This document shows positions 2,754 through 24,332 of a stretch of 32,000 nucleotides of DNA, in pieces; within the stretch, counting starts at the first letter, position 1; each line of letters begins with the position of its first letter. The stretch spans positions 2,460,001 to 2,492,000 of the forward strand of contig NC_013967.1 of NCBI RefSeq assembly GCF_000025685.1, written 5' to 3'. The notes under the pieces are model-generated. The model was not told the DNA's origin and made no database searches. It saw nothing but the letters and a program-made list of their open reading frames with translations. Origin of the DNA: Haloferax volcanii DS2. Lineage in GTDB: Archaea; Halobacteriota; Halobacteria; Halobacteriales; Haloferacaceae. The position numbers were made by a program, and so were the translations under genes.

Positions 2754-4178
2754 GTGGACCCTCGCCATCTCGCGGCCCGCGCGGTCGCACGCGTCGGCGC
2801 GCTCCGCGACCGGATTCGCCGGGTAGAGCGGCTCGAGATGGTGGCGTTCGGCCGCTGGATAGAGAACACGAACAACCTGCTGCATCTCTCGATTCTCCTC
2901 ATCATCCCCGTGCTCATCGCGGTGGTGACGCTCATCTCCAACTCGGTCAGCACGCTGTCGTTCCTGCTGTTCCCGCCGCTCGCGTCCGGGTCGTACACGC
3001 TGTTTTCCGACCCCGAGGGGCGGTACGCCTCGCCCGTGAAGTTCGTCGTCGCCCTCACGGTCGGCGCGCTCTGCGGCCTCGTCGCGGTCGGCTTCACCGG
3101 CTGGGCGTACGGCCCGACCGGGACCGCGCTCGTCCACCCGTCGGCGGCGGCGCTCGCCATCTTCCTCGCGGGCGCGACGACGTGGGCGTTAGACGTGGAA
3201 GCGCCGTCCGCGTTTTCGACGGCGCTCTTGACGCTCGTCACGGGCAACGTGAACCCCGAGGAGTACGTGGTGAGCATCTTCTTCGCCAGCGTCGTCATCG
3301 CCATCGCCTTTACCGTCTGGCGCGAGCAGTTCTACGAGCGCCGCGCGGAGTACCTCTACGGAACCGTCCGCGGCGACGACCACGTCCTCGTCCCGATGCG
3401 CGGCGAGACGGCGACCCAGACGGCCTTTTTCGCCGCCCGGCTCGCCGCCGCCCACAGCGCCGGGAAAGTCGTCCTCCTCGACGTGCTCCCGGCGACGCCG
3501 GCCGACGAGAGCGACGCGACCCCGGACACCACGGCCGACGGCGAACTCGACGCCGACGCCGACGCGTCGGTCGAGCGCCTCGAATCCTGCGCCCACAACC
3601 TACGGACCCAGTTGGGCGTCCCCGTGGAAATCGCCGTCGCGCGCGGCGACCCGCTGACGGCGACCACCGAGGCCGCGGCGAACACCAACTCCGACCTCGT
3701 GGTGACGCCCTACGAGGAGGACCGCGGCCTGCTTTCGGACTACATCCGCGGCCTGTTCGGCGGCTCGTACGACACCGTGGCGTTCCGCTCGACCGGCGAG
3801 ACCTACCGCTGGCGGCGCGTTCTCGTCCTCGTCGCGCGCCCCGGCGACGCCGCCCACGCGATGATAGACTTCGCGACTCGCCTCGCCGGGAAGACGGGGA
3901 GCGTGAGCGTCACGACGTGCATCTCCTCGGAGGTCGAACGCCGGCCCGCGGAGTCGAAGCTCGCCAATCTGGTCGAGACGGCCGACGGGAACATCGAGAC
4001 GCGGGTCGCCCGCTCGGAGGTGACGGCGTTTATCGCCTCCAATGCCGCCTCCTACGACCTCGTGGTGCTCGGCTCCAGCGGCGACCGCTCGCCCGCCTCG
4101 CGGTTCATCTCGCCGCCGACGTTCGAGCGCATCCGCGAGGTAGACTGCGACGTGGCGGTGTTCGACCGCGGGCACTGA
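2754..4178 (+). CDS. HPP-family membrane domain fused to two universal-stress-protein (UspA)-like domains
   Basis: The N-terminal polytopic part has HPP-like motifs ('FPPLASGSYTLF', 'VHPSAAALA'). The C-terminal half has two Usp-like units ('HVLVPMRGE..', 'RVLVLVARPGD...YDLVVLGSSGDRS'). GTG start at 2754; alternative ATG at 2838. Confidence 0.7.
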   Translation: MDPRHLAARAVARVGALRDRIRRVERLEMVAFGRWIENTNNLLHLSILLIIPVLIAVVTLISNSVSTLSFLLFPPLASGSYTLFSDPEGRYASPVKFVVALTVGALCGLVAVGFTGWAYGPTGTALVHPSAAALAIFLAGATTWALDVEAPSAFSTALLTLVTGNVNPEEYVVSIFFASVVIAIAFTVWREQFYERRAEYLYGTVRGDDHVLVPMRGETATQTAFFAARLAAAHSAGKVVLLDVLPATPADESDATPDTTADGELDADADASVERLESCAHNLRTQLGVPVEIAVARGDPLTATTEAAANTNSDLVVTPYEEDRGLLSDYIRGLFGGSYDTVAFRSTGETYRWRRVLVLVARPGDAAHAMIDFATRLAGKTGSVSVTTCISSEVERRPAESKLANLVETADGNIETRVARSEVTAFIASNAASYDLVVLGSSGDRSPASRFISPPTFERIREVDCDVAVFDRGH

Positions 4179-4252
4179 GCGCCGAGAGAGAGCGACGCGG
4201 AGCAGCCGGCGTCGGAATCGGCTCGCGGTTGCGACCGGCGTCGCCGGGGTCG

Positions 4253-5464
4253 TCAGTTACGGTCGTCCGTTCCGGGGTCGTCTGCCTCGCCCGTTCCGTC
4301 TTCGGCCGGCTCGGTGGGCTGTTCGTCGAGCAGCCGTTCCTCGATGGTTTCGAGGCCGCTCCCGCCGACGGCCGACTCCGCGAGGAAGTGGCCGCCGAGC
4401 GCCGCGGGGCTGATGACGGTGTTGGCCCCGGCGCGGCGCAGTTTCCGCTCGTTTTCCCGCTGGGTCGCCGCCGCGACGATGTGCACGTCGGGGTTGAGCT
4501 GTCGCGCCGTGAGGATGGCCAGCGCGTCTTCGGCGTCGTTGTTCGTGGCGACGACGACCGAGCGGGCGGCGTCGACGCGGGTCCGCTGGAGCGCCTCCTC
4601 GTCGCTCGGGTCGTCGGTGACCACGTCGTAGCCGCGGTCGGTGAGGCGCTTGGCGCGCCCCTCGTCGGGCGTGACGATGACGACGCGGGCGCGGTCGCCG
4701 AGCTCTTCGAGAATCGGTTCGGTCAGTTCCCCGTAGCCGAGGACGAGGACGTGGTTCTCCAGGATGTCGAGTTGTGATTCGGTCATGCGTCCGAGTGCTT
4801 TGGTGAGTCGCGCTTCGATTGCGGGCGTGAGCAGGACACCGAGCGCCACGGCGAACGTCGCCACCGTGATGAGGAGCGCCGAGATGCCGAACAGCCTGGC
4901 GATGGCGGTCTGCGGGTAGATGTCGCCGTAGCCGACCGTGCTACCGGTGACGACGCCGAAATAAAACGCGTCGAACAGCGTGTCGATGCCGTTGAACTGC
5001 TCTCTGAGCGCCCACGCGCCGGCGGTCGTGTAGGTCTGTGCGCCCGCGATGGCGAGCAGCGCCGACAGCTGCGTCGCCGTCAGGTCGAGGTCGCGGTCGA
5101 ACGCCCTGTGATTGAACACCAACAGCGCGAGGCTGATAAGCGAGAGCCCGACGAGCGGGGCCGCCCGCTCGGGCGACTGGATTAGCCCCTGCGCGGCGGT
5201 CACCGGGAGCATCACCGCGGTCGAGTACCACGCGGCGCGGTAGCGGCGGCGGAGCCCGAAGACGCTCGCGAGGAGCAGAAAGCCCGTCAGCGTCCCGGTG
5301 AAGCCGGCGGTGATGCGGACCGCGTCGGGGATGTAGGGTGCCAGCACGCCGCCGGCGACCGGGGAACTGATGTTGAGGATGCCGATGGCGACCGACAGGA
5401 CGGCGGCGACGAACACCGTCCCGATGGTCGCGCGGGCACCGACCCACTCGCGTACCGAAGCCAT
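4253..5464 (-). CDS. Potassium channel with C-terminal TrkA-N (RCK N-lobe) domain
   Basis: TVGYGD selectivity filter encoded at 4922-4939 (minus strand), preceded by about six hydrophobic helices. A Rossmann-type RCK follows ('HVLVLGYGELTEPILEEL...VVATNNDAEDAL'). The ORF-track start 5494 is TTG. I prefer ATG 5464 (MASVREW), 30 nt from CTTTTGG. Confidence 0.85.
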   Translation of the reverse strand: MASVREWVGARATIGTVFVAAVLSVAIGILNISSPVAGGVLAPYIPDAVRITAGFTGTLTGFLLLASVFGLRRRYRAAWYSTAVMLPVTAAQGLIQSPERAAPLVGLSLISLALLVFNHRAFDRDLDLTATQLSALLAIAGAQTYTTAGAWALREQFNGIDTLFDAFYFGVVTGSTVGYGDIYPQTAIARLFGISALLITVATFAVALGVLLTPAIEARLTKALGRMTESQLDILENHVLVLGYGELTEPILEELGDRARVVIVTPDEGRAKRLTDRGYDVVTDDPSDEEALQRTRVDAARSVVVATNNDAEDALAILTARQLNPDVHIVAAATQRENERKLRRAGANTVISPAALGGHFLAESAVGGSGLETIEERLLDEQPTEPAEDGTGEADDPGTDDRN

Positions 5465-5542: not shown

Positions 5543-5564
5543 GCGTCGGTGAGTGTACCGGCGC

Positions 5565-6776
5565 ATGGCTTCACTCCCCGTCGAAGTCGTCTACGGGCTG
5601 TACTTCGGCGTCCTCACGGGCCTCGTCCCGGCCGCCGTCGCGTGGCTCCTCGGCTTCGGCTTCCGCTACGTCACCGGCGTCACCGTGCCGGGCCTCGCCG
5701 TCGTCGTCCTCAGCGTCGCCATCGCGGGCGCGAGCGGCGGCCTCATGGCGCTGGCCGACCCGACGATTACGCAGTCGGAGAGCCAGGTCAGGCTGACGGT
5801 CGCGCTGTTGGTCGTCCTGATGGGGTCGTTGTACGCCCACAACCGCGGCGACGCCTTCGCCAACGATATCCCGCGGAAGATGTCGCTGCGCAAGCTCACC
5901 GAGCGGTCGCTGTCGACCGACGTGGTCGAACTCGTCGGCGGCCGCGGGCAGGTCAGCGTCACCGTCACCGGCGAGGTCGGTGACATCGAGGGTTACCCGC
6001 CGGTTCCGCTCGACATCCGCACCGGCATCCGCAACGGCGAGTGGACGTTCCCCGCCGACATCCCGCTCGTGGAACTCGAATCGCGGTTCGCCGACCGCCT
6101 GCAAAACGAGTTCGACCTCGCAGCCGTCGAGGTCAGACTCGACGAGCGGGCCCGCGCCACCGTCACCGCCGCGGCCCCGGTCGGCGGCCTCTCGAAGCGC
6201 CTCCCGGCGGGTAAGCGCGCGGTGTCGGTGACGGCGCTCGTGCCGACGGGGCTCGCGCAGGGCGACGACGTGGTCGTCGTCACCGACGGCGGCACGGTCT
6301 CGGCGACCGTCGCCGGAGTCGACTCCGTCGCGGAGGTCCCGAGCGAACCCGACGACGATGACGACGACGCGGACGCCCCGAAGGCCGCGCCGCGCGCCCC
6401 CACGGCCGTCGGCGGCGAGGGTCGCGTCACGCTCGCGGTCGACCGGGGGCAGGTCGAACCGCTCCTCACGAGCGACGTGGAGCGGTTCGTCGTCACCTCC
6501 CGCGGCGTCCGTCGGGAGTTCGAACTCGTCTCACTGCTCCGCCGCGCCGGCAAGCGCTTCTCTCGGCTCTCGGTTCGGTCCGAGAGCCCGCTCGACGGCG
6601 TGACACTCGGCGAGGCGGGCGTCCGCGACGCCTACGGCGTGGCCGTCCTCGCGGTCCGGCACGGCGGAAACTGGACGATTGCGCCGCGAGGGGACCAAGC
6701 GGTCTCCGCCGGCGACACGCTCTACGCGGTCGGGTCGAGAACCGACCTGACCGGCTTCGAGGAGGCGGTGGCGTGA
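5565..6776 (+). CDS. Membrane protein with C-terminal TrkA-C (RCK_C) domain, paralogue 1
   Basis: N-terminal TM helices, an acidic linker (DDDDDDAD, ~6351-6374) and a C-terminal 'LDGVTLGEAGVRDAYGVAVLAVRHGGNWTIAPRGDQAVSAGDTLYAVG' TrkA-C pattern. ATG 5565 preferred over GTG 5553 on TATA spacing. Confidence 0.8.
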   Translation: MASLPVEVVYGLYFGVLTGLVPAAVAWLLGFGFRYVTGVTVPGLAVVVLSVAIAGASGGLMALADPTITQSESQVRLTVALLVVLMGSLYAHNRGDAFANDIPRKMSLRKLTERSLSTDVVELVGGRGQVSVTVTGEVGDIEGYPPVPLDIRTGIRNGEWTFPADIPLVELESRFADRLQNEFDLAAVEVRLDERARATVTAAAPVGGLSKRLPAGKRAVSVTALVPTGLAQGDDVVVVTDGGTVSATVAGVDSVAEVPSEPDDDDDDADAPKAAPRAPTAVGGEGRVTLAVDRGQVEPLLTSDVERFVVTSRGVRREFELVSLLRRAGKRFSRLSVRSESPLDGVTLGEAGVRDAYGVAVLAVRHGGNWTIAPRGDQAVSAGDTLYAVGSRTDLTGFEEAVA

Positions 6777-9880: not shown

Positions 9881-12574
9881 ATGCGATTGCACACCAGAGA
9901 CGTGCGGCAAGACGTTCGCGAGCTGGGGGCACTGCTCGGTGACGTGCTCGAAGCGCAGACGTCGACGGCGTCGTTCGAGACGGTCGAAGAGCTTCGACAG
10001 GCGGCCATCTCCTACCGGAAGGGCGAGTCCGGGTCGCGCGAGCGGCTCTACGACGTGGTCGGCGACCTCGAACCGGAGCGCGAGAGCGTCGTCGCCCGCG
10101 CGTTCACGACCTACTTCGAACTCATCAACCTCGCCGAGGAGCGCGAGCGCGTTCGCGTCATCCGCGAGGCGTCCCAGGAGGGGACGCTCGAAGACGGCAT
10201 CCTCGACACGCTCGACGCGCTGGACGACGAGGAGGTCGACGAGGAGCTTCTGGGACGGGTCCTCGAAGACGTGCTCATCGAGCCGACGTTCACGGCCCAC
10301 CCGACCGAGGCCCGCCGGAAGACGGTGAAATCGAAGCTCCGCTCCATCGCCAACCGGCTGGAGACGCTCGACGAGCGCCGTCTCACCGACCTCGAACACG
10401 ACCAGGAGTGGCGGCACGTCGTCGCCGAGGTGACGAGCCTCTGGCAAACCTCGCAGGTCCGCGACCGCCGCCCGGAGCCGACCGACGAGGCCCGAAACGT
10501 CCAGTGGTACCTCGAAAACACGCTGTTCGACGTGGTCGGCGAGGTGTACGAGGAACTCGAAGAGGAGCTCCGCGCCGAGTACCCCGGCCTCGACGTGCCG
10601 AAGCTGTTCGAGTTCCGGTCGTGGGCCGGCTCCGACCGCGACGGCAACCCCTTCGTCACGCCCGAGGTGACCGAAGACACGCTCGAACGCCAGCGAAGCG
10701 TCGCCCTGGAAAAGTACAGCGACTCGCTCAAACGTCTCTCCGGTGTGCTGAGTCAGGACGCGACGCGAATCGACCCCGGCCACGAGCTCGAACGCTCGCT
10801 GAAGGCCGACCGCGAACACCTCCCCGTCGTCGCCGAGGAGGCCGACGAGCGCTACCCCAACGAGCCGTACCGCCAGAAGCTCAAGCTGATGCGCGAGCGG
10901 CTCCGCCGCGCCGAGGACGTCCGCCCGAACGGCTACGCCGACGCGAGCGAACTCATGGCCGATCTCGAGGTCGTCGACGCCAGCCTCCGGCGGACCGGCG
11001 CGGAGCAGGTCGCGGACGTGTACGTCGAGCCCCTGATGCGACAGGTCGACACGTTCGGCTTCACCCTCGCCAGCCTCGACCTCCGCGACCACCAGGAGAA
11101 CCACACCGAGGCCGTCCACGAGGCGCTGGCCCACGAGGGTCTCGACTACTACGGCAGTTCCGAACAGGAGCGCGTCGAACTCCTCACGGACGCGATTCTC
11201 CAGGAGGAGCCGGTCGTCGACCTCGAAGACCCCGGCGACGTGTCCGAGACGGCCGAGCGCGTCCTCCGCCGGTTCCGCAAGCTCGGCGAGTGGCAGCGCG
11301 AGTACGGCGTCGGCGCTATCGACACCTACTGCATCTCGATGACCGAAGAGCCGTCGCACGTCCTCGAAGTGCTGTTCCTCGCCGACCAAGCGGGCGTGGT
11401 CTCCCTGCCCGACCACTGCGGCATCGACGTGGTCCCGCTCCTCGAAACCGAGTCGGCGCTCAACGGCGCGCGCCGAATCATGGGCACGCTGTTCGAGAAC
11501 GAGGCCTACGGGACGGCGCTCGCCGCCCGCAACGACGTCCAGGAGATCATGCTGGGCTACTCCGACTCCAACAAGGAAAACGGCTTCCTCGCGGCCAACT
11601 GGGACCTCTACAAGAACCAGCGCCGCCTCGCGGACATCTGCGACGACTTCGACGTGACGATGCGGCTGTTCCACGGCCGCGGCGGCTCCATCTCCCGCGG
11701 CGGCGGCCCGATGAACGAGGCCATGCTCGCGCTCCCGAACGAGACCGTCACGGGGCAGATTAAGTTCACCGAACAGGGCGAGGCCATCGCCGAGAAGTAC
11801 GCCAACCCGCGCATCGCGGAGCGGAACCTCGAACAGATGCTCAACGCCCAGATTCGCGCCCGCCTGCAAGCGATTCGGACGCCCGAGGAGGAAGTCCCCG
11901 ACCGCTGGGTCGACGCCATGGACACCATGGCGGCCGCCGCGCGCGCGGAGTACCGCGACCTCCTCGAATCCGACGGCTTCGTCTCCTACTTCGAGCAGGC
12001 GACGCCCATCACCGTCATCGAGGAACTCAACCTCGGCTCCCGGCCGGCCTCCCGGTCCGACGAACGGAGCGTCGAGGACCTGCGGGCCATCCCGTGGGTG
12101 TTCTCGTGGACCCAGTCGCGGTGTATCCTCCCCGGCTGGTACTCGCTGGCCGCCGGCGTCAACGCCTTCCTCGAAGACGGCGGTGATATGGACGACCTCC
12201 GCGAGATGTACGACGAGTGGGCGTTCTTCCGCAGCACGTTCGACAACGCCGCGATGGCGCTGGCGCGCACCGACCTCGAAATCGCCACGGAGTACGCGAA
12301 CCTCGCCGACGAGGAGCTCCGCGAGGAGTTCTTCACCCGGCTCACCGAGGAATACGAGGACGCCGCGGACCTCATGCTCGACATCAGCGAGCGCAGCAGC
12401 CTCCTGAAGCGCGAGTGGCTCGAAGAGAGCCTCCGCCGCCGCAACCCCTACGTCGACCCGCTGAACCTGTTGCAGACCCACCTGCTGTCGCAGACCCACC
12501 GGACCGACGAGGAAGAACGGACCCTGCGGCTCACCGTCAAAGGCATCGCCGCCGGGATGAAGAACACGGGATAA
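9881..12574 (+). CDS. ppc: Phosphoenolpyruvate carboxylase (bacterial/plant-type Ppc)
   Basis: Length of about 897 aa and the PEPC signatures 'VLIEPTFTAHPTE', 'FHGRGGSISRGGGP', 'VFSWTQSRCILPGWY' and C-terminal 'GIAAGMKNTG'. Start trimmed from 9806 to ATG 9881 (MRLHTRDV). Confidence 0.95.
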   Translation: MRLHTRDVRQDVRELGALLGDVLEAQTSTASFETVEELRQAAISYRKGESGSRERLYDVVGDLEPERESVVARAFTTYFELINLAEERERVRVIREASQEGTLEDGILDTLDALDDEEVDEELLGRVLEDVLIEPTFTAHPTEARRKTVKSKLRSIANRLETLDERRLTDLEHDQEWRHVVAEVTSLWQTSQVRDRRPEPTDEARNVQWYLENTLFDVVGEVYEELEEELRAEYPGLDVPKLFEFRSWAGSDRDGNPFVTPEVTEDTLERQRSVALEKYSDSLKRLSGVLSQDATRIDPGHELERSLKADREHLPVVAEEADERYPNEPYRQKLKLMRERLRRAEDVRPNGYADASELMADLEVVDASLRRTGAEQVADVYVEPLMRQVDTFGFTLASLDLRDHQENHTEAVHEALAHEGLDYYGSSEQERVELLTDAILQEEPVVDLEDPGDVSETAERVLRRFRKLGEWQREYGVGAIDTYCISMTEEPSHVLEVLFLADQAGVVSLPDHCGIDVVPLLETESALNGARRIMGTLFENEAYGTALAARNDVQEIMLGYSDSNKENGFLAANWDLYKNQRRLADICDDFDVTMRLFHGRGGSISRGGGPMNEAMLALPNETVTGQIKFTEQGEAIAEKYANPRIAERNLEQMLNAQIRARLQAIRTPEEEVPDRWVDAMDTMAAAARAEYRDLLESDGFVSYFEQATPITVIEELNLGSRPASRSDERSVEDLRAIPWVFSWTQSRCILPGWYSLAAGVNAFLEDGGDMDDLREMYDEWAFFRSTFDNAAMALARTDLEIATEYANLADEELREEFFTRLTEEYEDAADLMLDISERSSLLKREWLEESLRRRNPYVDPLNLLQTHLLSQTHRTDEEERTLRLTVKGIAAGMKNTG

Positions 12575-20447: not shown

Positions 20448-21356
20448 ATGCAAGGGGAAGACCGGGCGTCGCTCCCAGACGACCTCCGCACGTGGGTCGA
20501 AGCGCGCGCCGACGAGGAGGGCGTCGACCCGGAGACGGTGCTCGCGCGGGCCCTCGGGACCTACCGGCTCGCCGTGAGCGACGCGGGCGAATCGCTCGAC
20601 GGCGACGCGACGGTCCCCGAACGCCTCGACGGGGTCGAAGGTCGCGTCGAGGCGCTCGAAGGCGAACTGGACGAGAAAATATCCGACGTGCGGACGCGCG
20701 TCGTGCAGGTCAAACGCGAGACCGACGAGAAAGCGCCGCGCGACCACGCGCACCCGGAGTTGGACGCCGAACTCGACCGACTGGCCGACGACGTGCACGC
20801 GACCCGAAACCGCATGGCCGACCTCGACGAGCGGGTCGACGCCGGCTTCGAGAACTTCGAGGAGATTCTCACCTATCTCGACGAGACGACCGCGACGGTC
20901 GACGAGAACCTTCGGACGGTCGCGCGGACGCTGTTGGACCTCCGCGCGAGGGCGGCGGACCTCGAAGCCGCCGAGCGCGAACGGACGGCGCTCTCGGAGC
21001 TCCTCCGGACTGCGAACGCGACCGGAGAGAAGAAAGCCCGGTGCGAAGACTGCGGCGAGACCGTCCACCTGGACCTGCTCTCCGAGCCCCGGTGTCCGTC
21101 GTGTCGGACCCCCTTCCGCGACCTGTCGTCGTCGCCCGGCTTCTTCGGCTCGGCGACGCTCCACACCGGTCGCCCCCCCGCGCTGGAGTCGGCCGATTCG
21201 GCCCGCGCGACCGACGCGGTCGAAGACCTGCTCGACGAGGCGCCCACCGGCGTGGTCGACGACGCGACCGACGGCGACGACGACCGATACGCCTCCCGGG
21301 AGGAGGAGTCGGCTCAGCAGGGTGCCGCGGCGGGGAGCGAACACGGCGACGACTGA
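20448..21356 (+). CDS. Hypothetical protein: RHH-like N-terminus, long coiled coil, CxxC-x13-CxxC zinc ribbon, acidic tail
   Basis: 302-aa acidic ORF. 'ASLPDDLRTWVEARADEEGVDPETVLARAL' has a strand-helix-helix look (inference). Heptad-rich centre. Zinc ribbon encoded at 21040-21102. Confidence 0.7.
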   Translation: MQGEDRASLPDDLRTWVEARADEEGVDPETVLARALGTYRLAVSDAGESLDGDATVPERLDGVEGRVEALEGELDEKISDVRTRVVQVKRETDEKAPRDHAHPELDAELDRLADDVHATRNRMADLDERVDAGFENFEEILTYLDETTATVDENLRTVARTLLDLRARAADLEAAERERTALSELLRTANATGEKKARCEDCGETVHLDLLSEPRCPSCRTPFRDLSSSPGFFGSATLHTGRPPALESADSARATDAVEDLLDEAPTGVVDDATDGDDDRYASREEESAQQGAAAGSEHGDD

Positions 21357-22001: not shown

Positions 22002-22331
22002 ATGCAGTTCTGCGACGAGTGCGGTTCGATGATGGTGAGCCAGAACGGCGCGATGACCTGCACGAACGACGACTGCGGGGGCACCGCCGAGCGCGACGAA
22101 GAACTCGCGGCGGAGTTCGTCTCCACCGAGGCGCAGTCGGGCGACGAACTCATCGAGACCGAAGAGGGCGCTGAGTTCGAGGGCAAGCCGACCGCGAAAG
22201 ACGTTCACTGCGACGACTGCGGCCACACGAAGGCGTGGTACACCATCAAGCAGACCGGGTCGGCCGACGAACCGCCGACGCGATTCTTTAAATGTCAGGA
22301 GTGCGGGTATCGGTGGCGGGAGTACAACTAG
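22002..22331 (+). CDS. tfs: Transcription factor S (TFS; RNA polymerase subunit M-like cleavage factor)
   Basis: N-terminal zinc ribbon 'CDECGSMM...CTNDDCG'. C-terminal ribbon 'CDDCGHTKAWY...TGSADEPPTRFFKCQECGYRW' contains the acidic DE loop typical of TFS/TFIIS domain III. Confidence 0.92.
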   Translation: MQFCDECGSMMVSQNGAMTCTNDDCGGTAERDEELAAEFVSTEAQSGDELIETEEGAEFEGKPTAKDVHCDDCGHTKAWYTIKQTGSADEPPTRFFKCQECGYRWREYN

Positions 22332-22423
22332 ATACGCACTTGAACTGCTGATCTCGGTAGGTTCTGATTTAGAGGATGTCTCGTCTTTTCTGTCTGCTTG
22401 TGAGTCTTGCTAGATATGGATAC

Positions 22424-22433
22424 AATTTAAATT
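22424..22433 (+). promoter_or_regulatory. Palindromic TATA-like element AATTTAAATT inside the island
   Basis: Centred about 28 nt upstream of ATG 22457, the same spacing as the native leaderless genes in this window. Because the island is AT-rich, a chance occurrence is more likely here than elsewhere. Confidence 0.4.
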
Positions 22434-22456
22434 GCTACCGTGATGACACAACACAG

Positions 22457-22594
22457 ATGTCGTTCCATGAGTTCGTTGGAGTCGGGCTTTCAATAATTGC
22501 GGTTATAATCTCGATACATACTAAATATCAGCAACGACAGAAAGATAAACTGAGAAAGTTAGCGAATAAGATGAAAAAGTGCAGGATAGCCTAG
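22457..22594 (+). CDS. 45-aa single-TM peptide, or the N-terminal anchor of the downstream ORF
   Basis: MSFHEFVGVGLSIIAVIISIHTKYQQRQKDKLRKLANKMKKCRIA has one hydrophobic helix followed by a Lys/Arg/Gln-rich stretch. The ORF-track start 22376 lies upstream of the TATA-like element, so I prefer 22457. Confidence 0.5.
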   Translation: MSFHEFVGVGLSIIAVIISIHTKYQQRQKDKLRKLANKMKKCRIA

Positions 22595-23208
22595 AAAACA
22601 TCGAGAGAGAACTGACCAATCCTCGTACACATGAGGATATCGAGTTGCGCCTTATTGAGATTCCAAGAGAGATATTTGCTTGTAAACATGAGCTTGGAAA
22701 AGATAAGATTTCTATATTCACAAAAATAGTAACCGGACATATAAGTGATTCAAATGAAGTATCAGATCCAGAACAGTTGTCAAATAAAATTCGAGAGAAT
22801 GAGCCGTATCTCGTAGAAGTGAAAATTGGAGATCGAGATGAGTTGTACGTTGCTGATCGGTCTTTTATGATTGATGACCCATTTCGAGATGCATCTGGAA
22901 TCCTCGCAGAACTGTCGGATATTGAAGATGAGTTTGGCGCAACAGTTAACGAATTCAACGATTCACTAATTCCAGACTTGAAGTCACAACTGGAATTGGT
23001 CATTCAACGACACTCTGAACAGATTATCCACAATGATGAGTTTTCCATACAAACATCTCAGGATAAATCGACCGAAGAGATAGGAACCGCTGTTTTTGAA
23101 CGTATCTTTCACTATAATAGAATAGACGAGGATTTAGAAGATTTGAGGAAAGTTCGTGAAGAAATAGATAACCTTCGGACGACAATATTACAGACAAGCT
23201 ACTCGTAA
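22579..23208 (+). CDS. Orphan acidic protein (209 aa), no recognised family
   Basis: A 630-nt open frame in ~35% GC DNA, where stops are expected about every 14 codons. D/E-rich, mostly helical-looking. GTG start at 22579; the frame is closed by TAA at 22567-22569. It overlaps the upstream ORF by 16 nt in the -1 frame. Confidence 0.7.
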   Translation: MQDSLENIERELTNPRTHEDIELRLIEIPREIFACKHELGKDKISIFTKIVTGHISDSNEVSDPEQLSNKIRENEPYLVEVKIGDRDELYVADRSFMIDDPFRDASGILAELSDIEDEFGATVNEFNDSLIPDLKSQLELVIQRHSEQIIHNDEFSIQTSQDKSTEEIGTAVFERIFHYNRIDEDLEDLRKVREEIDNLRTTILQTSYS

Positions 23209-23246
23209 AGAGACTTATTAACGCTCCTAACTCTCAAAGAGCCGAA

Positions 23247-24332
23247 TCACCTCTCACCCAACTCCTCGGCCGTCACCGCACCCGGCCCCTCCTCACGCTC
23301 GTCTTCCGAATCGCTCGCGAGCGCGTAGCCGTAGGGGACGAGCAACAGGCTCCCGAACCAGCCGACGACGAGTCCGAGCGTGCCGAAAATCGTCCCGACG
23401 ATGCCGATTGCGACGGCGTCGGCCGCGACGACGACGGCGGCGAGCGCGACGCTCCAGCCGACGAGCGACTTCCACGACCCGCGACGGATGCAGAAGCCGG
23501 CGAACAGGCCGAAGGCGGTCACGACGCCGATGCCGGGGATGAGGACGTAGCGCATGCCGAGCGACCCCGTGTTGGTGAGCGTCGTCCCCAGCCACATGGC
23601 GACGAGCGTGCCGGGGACGACCAGGACGGCGGTTCGGCGGTCCAGCGGGCGGGCGCGGCGTCGAAGCCGGAACGCGCCGAGGAGGCCGAGGCCCGCGACG
23701 GTGTACGCCCAGCCGATGGGGTTGAACAGGAAGCCGCCGATGAGGGCGAGGAAGTTCCCGAGAATCTCGCCTTCATTCGCGGGATAGACGAGATAGTGCG
23801 CGTCGCCGCGCTCGTAGAGCCCCGGCACGACGAAGGTGCTGTTGGTGACGGTGCCGCCGTCGATGGCCTCGCGCACGTCGGCGCTGGCGTTCGCGGCGGG
23901 CGACGACGCCCCGGCGGCGACGGTCTCCCAGTCGGTCGGGTCGAGTTCGATGGTCGCGCGAACCGGGTCGCCCGAGACGTTCAGCGAGAACCGATAGTAC
24001 CGGCCGTCGTAGACCGCGAACGCGGCGTCTTCGTTCACGTCCGAGAGAGTCATGTACGCCTCGGGTTCGATGTCGCCGTCGTACCGGCCGGTGCGGGCGG
24101 CGGTGGCGACCGGCTCGCGGAGCTGCGGCGTCTCGTTCGCCGCCTCATCGAGGTTGACCACGTCGGGGTCGTAGGAGGCGACGCGGCCGGGCGGCGAGTC
24201 GGCGGTCACTTCCTCGGCTTCGTACGTCGATTCGAGCGACGAGGTCGAGGTCGCGACGGCGAACGACTGACTCAGCGCGACGCCGACGAGGAGAAGGGCG
24301 ACGACGGCGGCGAGTCGCTTGCGAGGGACCAT
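23247..24332 (-). CDS. Hypothetical membrane protein (N-terminal signal/anchor, ~180-aa external domain, C-terminal multi-TM bundle)
   Basis: 361-aa ORF with ATG 24332. 'RLAAVVALLLVGVALSQSFA' is the anchor. Five or so hydrophobic helices occupy the last 170 aa, followed by an acidic tail. Confidence 0.75.
   Translation of the reverse strand: MVPRKRLAAVVALLLVGVALSQSFAVATSTSSLESTYEAEEVTADSPPGRVASYDPDVVNLDEAANETPQLREPVATAARTGRYDGDIEPEAYMTLSDVNEDAAFAVYDGRYYRFSLNVSGDPVRATIELDPTDWETVAAGASSPAANASADVREAIDGGTVTNSTFVVPGLYERGDAHYLVYPANEGEILGNFLALIGGFLFNPIGWAYTVAGLGLLGAFRLRRRARPLDRRTAVLVVPGTLVAMWLGTTLTNTGSLGMRYVLIPGIGVVTAFGLFAGFCIRRGSWKSLVGWSVALAAVVVAADAVAIGIVGTIFGTLGLVVGWFGSLLLVPYGYALASDSEDEREEGPGAVTAEELGER

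Follow-up and report, generated by a model that had tools for sequence, protein, structure and literature searches.

The subject of this analysis is a short AT-rich island in the genome of Haloferax volcanii DS2, together with the single gene that it carries, part of which is annotated as HVO_2633. The island lies in a 32,000-nt window (positions 2,460,001 to 2,492,000 of contig NC_013967.1, assembly GCF_000025685.1) – the whole stretch of DNA analysed here, along which all H. volcanii coordinates below are counted – and fills the gap between the 3′ ends of two convergent genes. To its left is tfs, encoding the 109-aa transcription factor S (22002–22331, forward strand; Zn_ribbon_TFIIS match; stop codon TAG); to its right, on the reverse strand, is a gene for a 361-aa membrane protein of the DUF8127 family (23247–24332). 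These two genes were used as anchors of the insertion site in all comparisons, the TFS protein being 100% conserved and the DUF8127 gene providing the syntenic right-hand border.

Between the tfs stop (22331) and the DUF8127 stop (23247), that is, over 22332–23246, the G+C content is 0.388, compared with 0.694 in the rest of the window; it falls just past the one stop codon and rises again just ahead of the other. Apart from one marginal 300-nt bin, nowhere else in the 32 kb does it go below 0.58, so the drop noticed by the first-pass annotation of this DNA, which was made from the sequence alone, is unique in the window. That annotation had also reported an open frame with an acidic product and no recognisable domain, and this description holds. 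The frame at 22579–23208 on the forward strand stays open over 630 nt (it is stop-free already from 22570) and corresponds to HVO_2633 as annotated, with a GTG start and 209 aa (taxid 309800; ADE02341.1 / D4GUJ0_HALVD). Its product – the body of the protein discussed below, predicted to be cytoplasmic and ending in TSYS – contains 24% D+E and 11% K+R and has no curated domain match, and its G+C content at the three codon positions is 0.53/0.29/0.34, against 0.56/0.46/0.87 in tfs. The probability of roughly 1e-7 originally given for such a frame arising by chance is right for a fixed frame and start (1.7e-7) but too low for a search of all six frames, where the shuffled island gave at least 212 stop-free codons in 2 of 20,000 trials (p ~1e-4), a value that is still beyond chance. 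The coding status is in any case settled by the existence of homologs and by a ratio of non-synonymous to synonymous divergence (ω) of 0.18.

Upstream of HVO_2633, a further open reading frame (ORF) of 45 aa with a single transmembrane (TM) helix begins at ATG 22457 and extends to 22594 on the forward strand. As had been pointed out, it is preceded by a TATA-like palindrome, AATTTAAATT (22424–22433, forward strand), the TTTAAA core of which is centred ~28 nt before this ATG, a distance that implies a leaderless or near-leaderless mRNA. A TATA-like element at the same distance from the ATG is found in eight haloarchaeal loci (the compared loci carry L numbers): those of H. volcanii and Haloferax gibbonsii ARA6, as well as L018, L019, L021, L022, L030 and L032. 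A host-type promoter at the HVO_2633 locus, presumably an active one, is therefore as plausible as it had first seemed. A promoter and terminator scan returned only a weak terminator-like hairpin, just 3′ of tfs. A 72-aa ORF starting further upstream, at ATG 22376, was rejected, as the corresponding frame in ARA6 stops inside the TATA box.

One gene split by a frameshift

The ORF at ATG 22457, initially taken for a small peptide gene preceding a separate 209-aa protein gene, does exist, but comparison with related sequences identifies it and HVO_2633 as two halves of one gene. The two frames overlap at a run of five A residues (22574–22578, forward strand), the site of a 1-bp deletion; with one A inserted here, the frame extends over 250 aa and is colinear with a protein of H. 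gibbonsii. Without this A, the 5′ fragment of the gene (22457–22594) consists of 41 native codons, which encode the TM helix and a juxtamembrane stretch (KYQQRQKDKLRK), and of 4 codons read out of frame before a stop is reached. When the fused 250-aa sequence was used as a query against 5.8 billion proteins, the only match besides HVO_2633 was this H. gibbonsii protein, which is likewise 250 aa long, 73% identical and aligns with the entire query (100%), TM helix included. In H. gibbonsii ARA6, the intact gene is found at the same site, between tfs and the convergent DUF8127 gene, in a gap of 915 bp with a G+C content of 0.39, and the DNA alignment at the frameshift sets AAA-AAG in H. volcanii against AAACGAG in ARA6. 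A profile hidden Markov model (HMM) of the wider protein family matches both H. volcanii frames, the body with an E value of 2e-58 and the upstream frame with 1e-12.

A sequencing error can be ruled out as the cause, because the same frameshift is present in an independent DS2 assembly and the 209-aa form occurs on 45 H. volcanii contigs, whereas the records contain no H. volcanii allele that is intact. Between the H. volcanii and ARA6 genes, the Nei–Gojobori method gives an ω of 0.18 overall, 0.20 for the TM part and 0.17 for the body; the gene had therefore been subject to purifying selection along its full length, and the frameshift is recent. The H. volcanii locus is most likely a recent pseudogene, or at best the source of an untethered product: the term ‘membrane-anchored’, used in the first-pass annotation, fits the ancestral protein but not the present state of DS2, as on all 45 H. 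volcanii contigs the anchor is confined to the separate 45-aa ORF.

It is also conceivable that the split locus is still functional, either as a two-part system, with a 45-aa TM peptide and a soluble 209-aa protein translated from the GTG, or through a –1 slip on AAA-AAG that would yield the full-length protein, in which case the product would contain the junction peptide KMKKVQDSLENIER. A –1 shift at 22574–22579 would indeed give exactly the ancestral sequence, with KMKK directly followed by VQD; neither half shows relaxed constraint relative to ARA6; and the GTG codon overlaps the upstream stop by 16 nt, so that translational coupling can be imagined. However, the gene is a single continuous ORF in every locus examined and no homolog has a slippery site at this position, G_AAA_AAG does not conform to the canonical X_XXY_YYZ heptamer, no stimulatory structure was noticed (nor was one looked for), and a recent mutation would account just as well for the low divergence. 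Nor has the 45-aa ORF been called as a gene in any assembly. Overall, we regard continued function of the split gene as improbable. HVO_2633 is not mentioned in the literature searched.

Foreign DNA at the 3′ end of tfs

Alignments of the locus across Haloferax identify the island as foreign DNA, a single-gene insertion of about 0.86 kb in the 3′–3′ gap between tfs and the DUF8127 gene. The site is empty in relatives: in nine genomes or assemblies – including those of H. massiliensis, the H. gibbonsii type strain, H. chudinovii and several Haloferax sp. – the gap measures 48–54 bp. The flanks of ARA6 are 99.1% identical to those of the empty-site strains L012 and L013, and its insert of 859 bp lies between 8-bp direct repeats (CTATTTTA; chance 0.013); once these 859 bp are removed, a 56-nt gap remains that aligns with the empty sites. 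No 8-bp flanking direct repeat is recognisable in the H. volcanii window. There, homology with ARA6 and the empty sites places the inserted AT-rich DNA at about 22360–23217, preceded by a diverged leftover of the left part of the native gap (about 22332–22359), the limits of both segments being approximate, and followed by the right part of the native gap (23218–23246, TTAACGCTCC...GAGCCGAA), which aligns with the empty sites. The island as originally delimited does consist of AT-rich foreign DNA, but it also took in this native sequence at 23218–23246. On the right, the transition is very sharp and lies only a few nt from the DUF8127 stop.

With no terminal inverted repeats at the island ends, no transposase and no recognisable target-site duplication in the window, a transposon, insertion sequence or miniature inverted-repeat transposable element has been ruled out. 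Two minor differences at the left-hand border can be added. About 10 nt located directly 3′ of the H. volcanii tfs stop (ATACGCACTT, 22332–22341) have no counterpart in ARA6 or the empty sites, and the stop codon itself is TAG in H. volcanii, TGA in most other Haloferax copies examined, and TAA in H. denitrificans and L008.

Universal conservation of the island at this position – a finding that would have spoken for a housekeeping gene – is not what the genus presents: besides the nine empty sites, two genomes carry other cargo in the same gap. In H. denitrificans (L006, 5087–6664), the insert is 1578 bp long, with a G+C content of 0.48, and contains a C-terminal integrase fragment, another piece related to the metagenomic contig L018 (described below) and a 309-aa ORF (5548–6477) with a twin-arginine signal, a lipobox-like LAGC and no family match. 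In L016 (GCA_003382985.1, 3831–5179), a third unrelated insert of 1349 bp and a G+C content of 0.43 encodes a soluble, acidic protein of 334 aa (4032–5036), co-directional with tfs and without a match in Pfam, PADLOC or PHROG. In H. marisrubri (L007), the gap is 116 bp long, from the DUF8127 stop at ~5086 to the tfs stop at ~5203, and contains a direct duplication of ~29 bp, composed of the 3′ end of tfs plus GAGACTGAC, around a 36-bp spacer; it looks like the attL/attR scar that the loss of an integrated element might leave.

An alternative history, in which the islet is an old, vertically inherited host gene that was lost in most lineages and owes its AT-richness to selection or mutation bias, would account for the G+C content of 0.39 in both copies, neither of which has ameliorated despite a synonymous divergence (dS) of 0.85, and for the identical position, orientation and 915-bp gap length in H. 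volcanii and ARA6. Yet the empty sites of the strains whose flanks are 99.1% identical to those of ARA6 match the empty sites of other species, rather than resembling a deletion scar; the terminal segment of tfs has been exchanged along with the islet; and homologs of the gene reside in integrase-bearing elements. We consider vertical descent highly improbable.

The gap is not the harmless landing place that it had been taken for, as the comparisons mark the 3′ end of tfs as a recurrent recombination target, that is, an attachment (att) site. Contig L018, 5.8 kb of metagenomic DNA, carries a family member (P0078, 41% identity) and a tyrosine integrase with a SAM-like N-terminal domain (PF00589, 31.2 bits against a cutoff of 27.1), and has fragments of the TFS C-terminal coding sequence at both ends. 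Its integrase is 27–35% identical to those of Harhisp1, SNJ2, HHPV4, Halfgib1 and haloarchaeal plasmids. The gap of H. denitrificans holds two pieces of L018-like DNA (82% over 171 nt, E 2e-43), and the integrase C-terminus has a counterpart there with 93% amino acid identity. A metagenome scan with the L018 integrase returned seven loci, three of which (L024, L026 and L027) share the order partial tfs copy, integrase, cargo, full tfs, and are flanked by 50-bp imperfect direct repeats, each consisting of the terminal ~46 nt of tfs plus its stop codon and one further base; another, L029, is the remnant of a decayed element. In the metagenomic haloarchaeon L019, a family member (P0003, 46%) lies 72 nt from the tfs stop. 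On the 203-kb contig L024, an AT-rich slot (11245–12000, G+C 0.38–0.46) directly after the integrase contains a 251-aa ORF with an N-terminal TM helix, to which the family HMM is negative. Neither this protein nor the alternative cargos of L016 (334 aa) and H. denitrificans (309 aa) could be assigned to any family, and none of the three is a remote member of the one described below.

A second line of evidence is found in tfs itself. Across Haloferax (L001 and L003–L016), the terminal ~46 coding nt of the gene exist in two synonymous haplotypes: ‘G’, with GC-rich third positions, and ‘A’, with the codons TTT/AAA/TGT/GAA/TAT. Upstream of this segment tfs is nearly invariant, so the mosaic is limited to the att segment. 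In H. volcanii, the segment together with the stop codon occupies 22283–22331 (forward strand), corresponds to the att repeat of the tfs-targeting elements elsewhere and, as in ARA6, is of the AT-richer ‘A’ haplotype. Compared with its 99.1%-identical relatives, ARA6 has 12 third-codon differences in tfs, all of them in the last ~46 nt, as opposed to 8 differences over the remaining ~1450 nt, while the first 157 nt of the opposite flank are free of any; the end of tfs was thus exchanged together with the islet. Such a two-haplotype mosaic is the footprint to be expected if elements that carry their own tfs end recombine there, and the start of the islet right after the tfs stop, combined with the exchange of the terminal tfs segment, agrees with what defines the tfs-targeting elements.

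These observations suggest the following scenario. Haloarchaeal integrative elements with XerC/D-like tyrosine integrases repeatedly target the 3′ end of tfs, each bringing its own copy of the last ~46 nt of the gene and ending up flanked by repeats of ~50 bp. The islet may then be a stripped-down remnant of this traffic, or a cassette transferred from it by recombination, in which a single optional cargo gene with its own TATA-type promoter would be left over; in H. volcanii, a 1-bp deletion in the A run has parted the membrane anchor (the 45-aa ORF) from the body (HVO_2633). Taken jointly, the insertion, the membership of the gene in a protein family (see below), the frameshift, the earlier purifying selection and the att-type hotspot make up an account in which we have fairly high confidence. 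A mobile-element origin, suspected from the outset, also fits the places where family members are found: next to integrases, in a tfs-integrated element, in a virus- or plasmid-like gene array and on contigs of uniformly low G+C content.

Several observations weigh against this account. As already stated in the first reading, scans reveal no integrase, tRNA, terminal inverted repeat or att-like direct repeat in the window: a tblastn search of the window with the L018 integrase was negative, and the stretch 22200–23400 contains neither another tfs copy, even a partial one, nor a flanking repeat. The element-end motif GATTGCATCG, common to L018, L024, L026 and L029 and located ~60–85 nt past the tfs stop, is absent from the H. 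volcanii and ARA6 islets and from L019. The family gene is co-directional with tfs in H. volcanii and ARA6, whereas in L018 and L019 the two genes converge, so the islet is not simply a truncated L018-type element – which, together with the lack of an integrase, a repeat and GATTGCATCG, is the reason for calling it a remnant or a transferred cassette. L024, L026 and L027 do not carry the family gene, and the link between element type and cargo must therefore be loose. In Methanolobus (L017), L020 and L032, the gene forms solitary AT-rich islets amid housekeeping genes. The dS between the H. volcanii and ARA6 alleles is 4–5 times that of the flanks (0.15–0.26). Finally, HVO_2633 is not listed in the supplements searched (differential RNA sequencing, mixed RNA sequencing and the Archaeal Proteome Project, ArcPP), and expression or proteomic data for it were not found.

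Haloferax species are known from mating and recombination studies to exchange islands through flanking homology, and the acquisition by ARA6 of the islet and a donor-type tract in a 99.1%-identical background resembles such an exchange. What sets the case apart is that the imported tract is very short and asymmetric, reaching ~46 nt into tfs on the left but not extending into the right flank; as its left end coincides with the att segment, site-specific recombination provides a better fit than general recombination. Another point of comparison is provided by the integrative genetic elements (IGEs) with XerC/D-like integrases described in H. gibbonsii LR2-5, namely IGE1–3 (PMC7921747). The tfs elements share with these and with pleolipovirus-type proviruses a tyrosine integrase, terminal direct repeats in which the 3′ part of the target gene is copied, a G+C content below that of the host and strain-variable occurrence. 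They differ in that their target is the 3′ end of a protein-coding gene rather than a tRNA and in measuring only ~4–6 kb; and in the H. volcanii window nothing but the single cargo gene remains of any such element.

A family of membrane-anchored archaeal proteins

HVO_2633 was first described as an orphan, a status that did not withstand deeper searches: sequence profiles place it, as a disrupted member, in an unnamed archaeal family of membrane-anchored proteins. An exhaustive HMMER profile search of 1.84 billion representative sequences retrieved 75 cluster representatives at E ≤ 1e-3, a number that shrinks to 36 at E ≤ 1e-10, and gave 5.6e-126 for P0001. The family as defined here comprises the representatives P0002–P0093, with the intact ARA6 protein as P0002; Haloferax gibbonsii and, with one member, Methanolobus vulcani are among its sources. 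Most members are 250–290 aa long and match the profile end to end.

Four parts can be told apart in the family alignment. The N-terminal TM helix, which ends in Y/H-S/T-x-x-K-Q-R, leads into a helical linker; a variable α/β middle comes next, and the C-terminal module (EFD..LL, YDGIEEDLE), which is conserved, closes with LQTSYS. The TM helix is present in 79 of the 93 sequences, the others being fragments, and roughly half of the 93 are strongly acidic. Most of their C-termini follow the near-invariant consensus [ST]SY[STA] – SYS in 41, SYT in 16 and SYA in 10 – and that of HVO_2633 (...LQTSYS) conforms to it. In DS2, the TM helix and the basic juxtamembrane motif (H/Y-S/T-K-x-Q-Q-R) are encoded from 22457 (MSFHEFVGVGLSIIAVIISIHTKYQQRQK) on a separate ORF, the 1-bp deletion at 22574–22578 having interrupted what is elsewhere a single continuous reading frame. 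Because the juxtamembrane stretch is positively charged, the positive-inside rule would place the acidic domain in the cytoplasm, giving a predicted topology of 2–5 residues outside, one TM helix and ~210 residues inside. In the AlphaFold2 model (41-sequence alignment; pLDDT 93.2, pTM 0.85), these ~210 residues are predicted to form an acidic domain of α/β-plus-helical architecture.

Eleven independent genomic contexts of the family were examined. In seven independent contexts of higher G+C content, the gene forms an AT-rich single-gene islet with sharp edges, and in every one of these the AT-rich stretch comprises the gene and its promoter only. Apart from the tfs gap (H. volcanii and ARA6), the tfs-integrated element L018, the tfs-adjacent L019 and the solitary islets mentioned above, the gene is found among small ORFs on the low-GC contigs L021 and L022; in L030 and L031, at a distance of 594 nt upstream of a bacteriophage exclusion (BREX) locus in which PADLOC recognises BrxA (9e-169), BrxC (E = 0) and BrxB (5e-120); in L033, next to a SIR2 defence-type gene (4e-22) and part of an integrase gene (phrog_216, 1.6e-26); and, in L034, behind a helix–turn–helix (HTH) gene within a series of small ORFs that is virus- or plasmid-like. 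The BREX locus, on haloarchaeal metagenome contigs, runs from 8207 to 17146 in L030 and from 3118 to 12057 in L031, and comprises BrxA, BrxC, BrxB and a second BrxC-like gene. Most members (P0007–P0033) come from contigs of ~1–1.5 kb, barely longer than the gene; such contigs are what one might expect if assembly broke around a strain-variable, compositionally odd insert.

Possible roles and wider significance

The contexts with integrases, BREX and SIR2 weakly favour a role in conflicts involving mobile elements and viruses. We tentatively consider a membrane-located role for the intact protein, which would be the product of a moron-like accessory gene taking part in conflicts among elements, viruses and hosts, for instance in exclusion or defence. 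Morons are autonomous extra genes of temperate phages that have their own promoter and a deviant base composition. The family gene is like a moron in its conserved promoter element, its deviant composition, its optional presence, its location near an att site and its membrane-bound product; it is unlike one in being archaeal and, in H. volcanii, in having no surrounding prophage, while the terminator of morons and a benefit to host or element do not form part of the likeness.

Weighing against any specific function, the pLDDT-93 model has no Foldseek match in PDB or BFVD, a profile search of PDB sequences returned nothing but coiled-coil noise, and the proteins of the island have no significant match in Pfam, PADLOC, PHROGs or NCBIfam. 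Homology to a known family, haloviruses and plasmids included, has not emerged: when 50,697 phage and 72,556 plasmid records were searched by tblastn with the intact protein as the query, there was no match even at E ≤ 1, and scans of IMG/VR with the family protein and with the L018 integrase were negative. None of 41 family members reached the Pfam threshold, and none of the window proteins was assigned to a family of PADLOC-DB 2.0, where P0002 gave one sub-threshold line for a 2TM (two-TM) effector (E 0.003, no scoring stretch).

More specifically, the intact protein might be an active single-gene, membrane-anchored effector of antiviral defence or superinfection exclusion, akin to abortive-infection proteins, a function that would be compatible with the structural account given above. 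It would suit an optional cargo of integrative elements that has its own promoter and resembles a prophage moron; the patchy, strain-variable distribution, with most members on ~1-kb contigs; the member located upstream of the complete BREX locus on two contigs and the one beside a SIR2 defence-type gene and an integrase; and the tolerated loss through frameshift in DS2. On the other side, PADLOC finds nothing significant beyond the 2TM line already mentioned, and, by raw count, defence neighbours occur in only 2 of the 11 contexts; there is no fold match and no homolog in known haloviruses. The Pfam matches to SieB (PF14163) and SLATT_4/5 (PF18186/PF18160) are sub-threshold (E 7e-4 to 7e-3), concern one member each and reflect the TM-plus-helix region. 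SieB and SLATT proteins do resemble the family in that a helical region comes after an N-terminal membrane segment and in that they occur on mobile elements or in conflict systems, but the family has one TM helix, not two, and belongs to neither. On balance, we find the effector function somewhat doubtful. As a whole, a still more ambitious proposal seems rather unlikely, namely that the family is a single-gene membrane-anchored exclusion effector with a previously unseen fold, housed in an AT-rich promoter-plus-gene cassette, and that the 3′ end of tfs represents a new class of archaeal attachment sites, the repeated use of which has left behind a genus-wide two-haplotype mosaic in the final ~46 nt of a gene for an essential-type transcription factor.

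Alternatively, the protein could serve the mobile element itself, for instance by tethering its replication, partition or transfer to the membrane. In L034, the gene follows an HTH regulator in a tight co-directional array and overlaps the next ORF, an arrangement more reminiscent of element backbone than of a moron, and in L018 it follows a 326-aa ORF that is conserved in L024. However, the closely related tfs-targeting elements L024, L026 and L027 manage without the gene, and it persists alone, under purifying selection and with no element genes around it, in H. volcanii and ARA6, in Methanolobus and in L032. An element-serving function is unlikely, and less likely than a role in conflicts at the membrane.

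As to its general kind, the island is of an already known type, the remnant of an integrative element with a cargo gene, whereas tfs as an att target and the protein family appear to be undescribed in the libraries searched, in which the family also appears to have neither a name nor an annotation. The findings overturn no current ideas and offer a solid lead rather than a surprise, albeit in the main haloarchaeal model organism. In practical terms, the annotation of HVO_2633 – a 209-aa hypothetical protein with a GTG start – should be changed to that of a frameshifted gene, with the real start at ATG 22457 and an originally membrane-anchored product. The intact ARA6 allele, in a tractable genus, provides a handle on an archaeal family of ~75 clusters that has no annotation or fold match. 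The tfs–DUF8127 gap, where no fewer than three mutually unrelated cargos and several elements with integrases have landed, constitutes a small and well-defined hotspot, convenient for collecting archaeal accessory genes and for studying how elements integrate at a protein-coding gene's 3′ end.

Outside the island, an acidic 302-aa ORF at 20448–21356, upstream of a DUF8135 gene and tfs, has a zinc-ribbon-like CxxC...CxxC motif at its C-terminus and no precomputed Pfam match. Because of the high G+C content, it is overlapped by many long spurious ORFs on both strands, and it is syntenic in all Haloferax loci seen.

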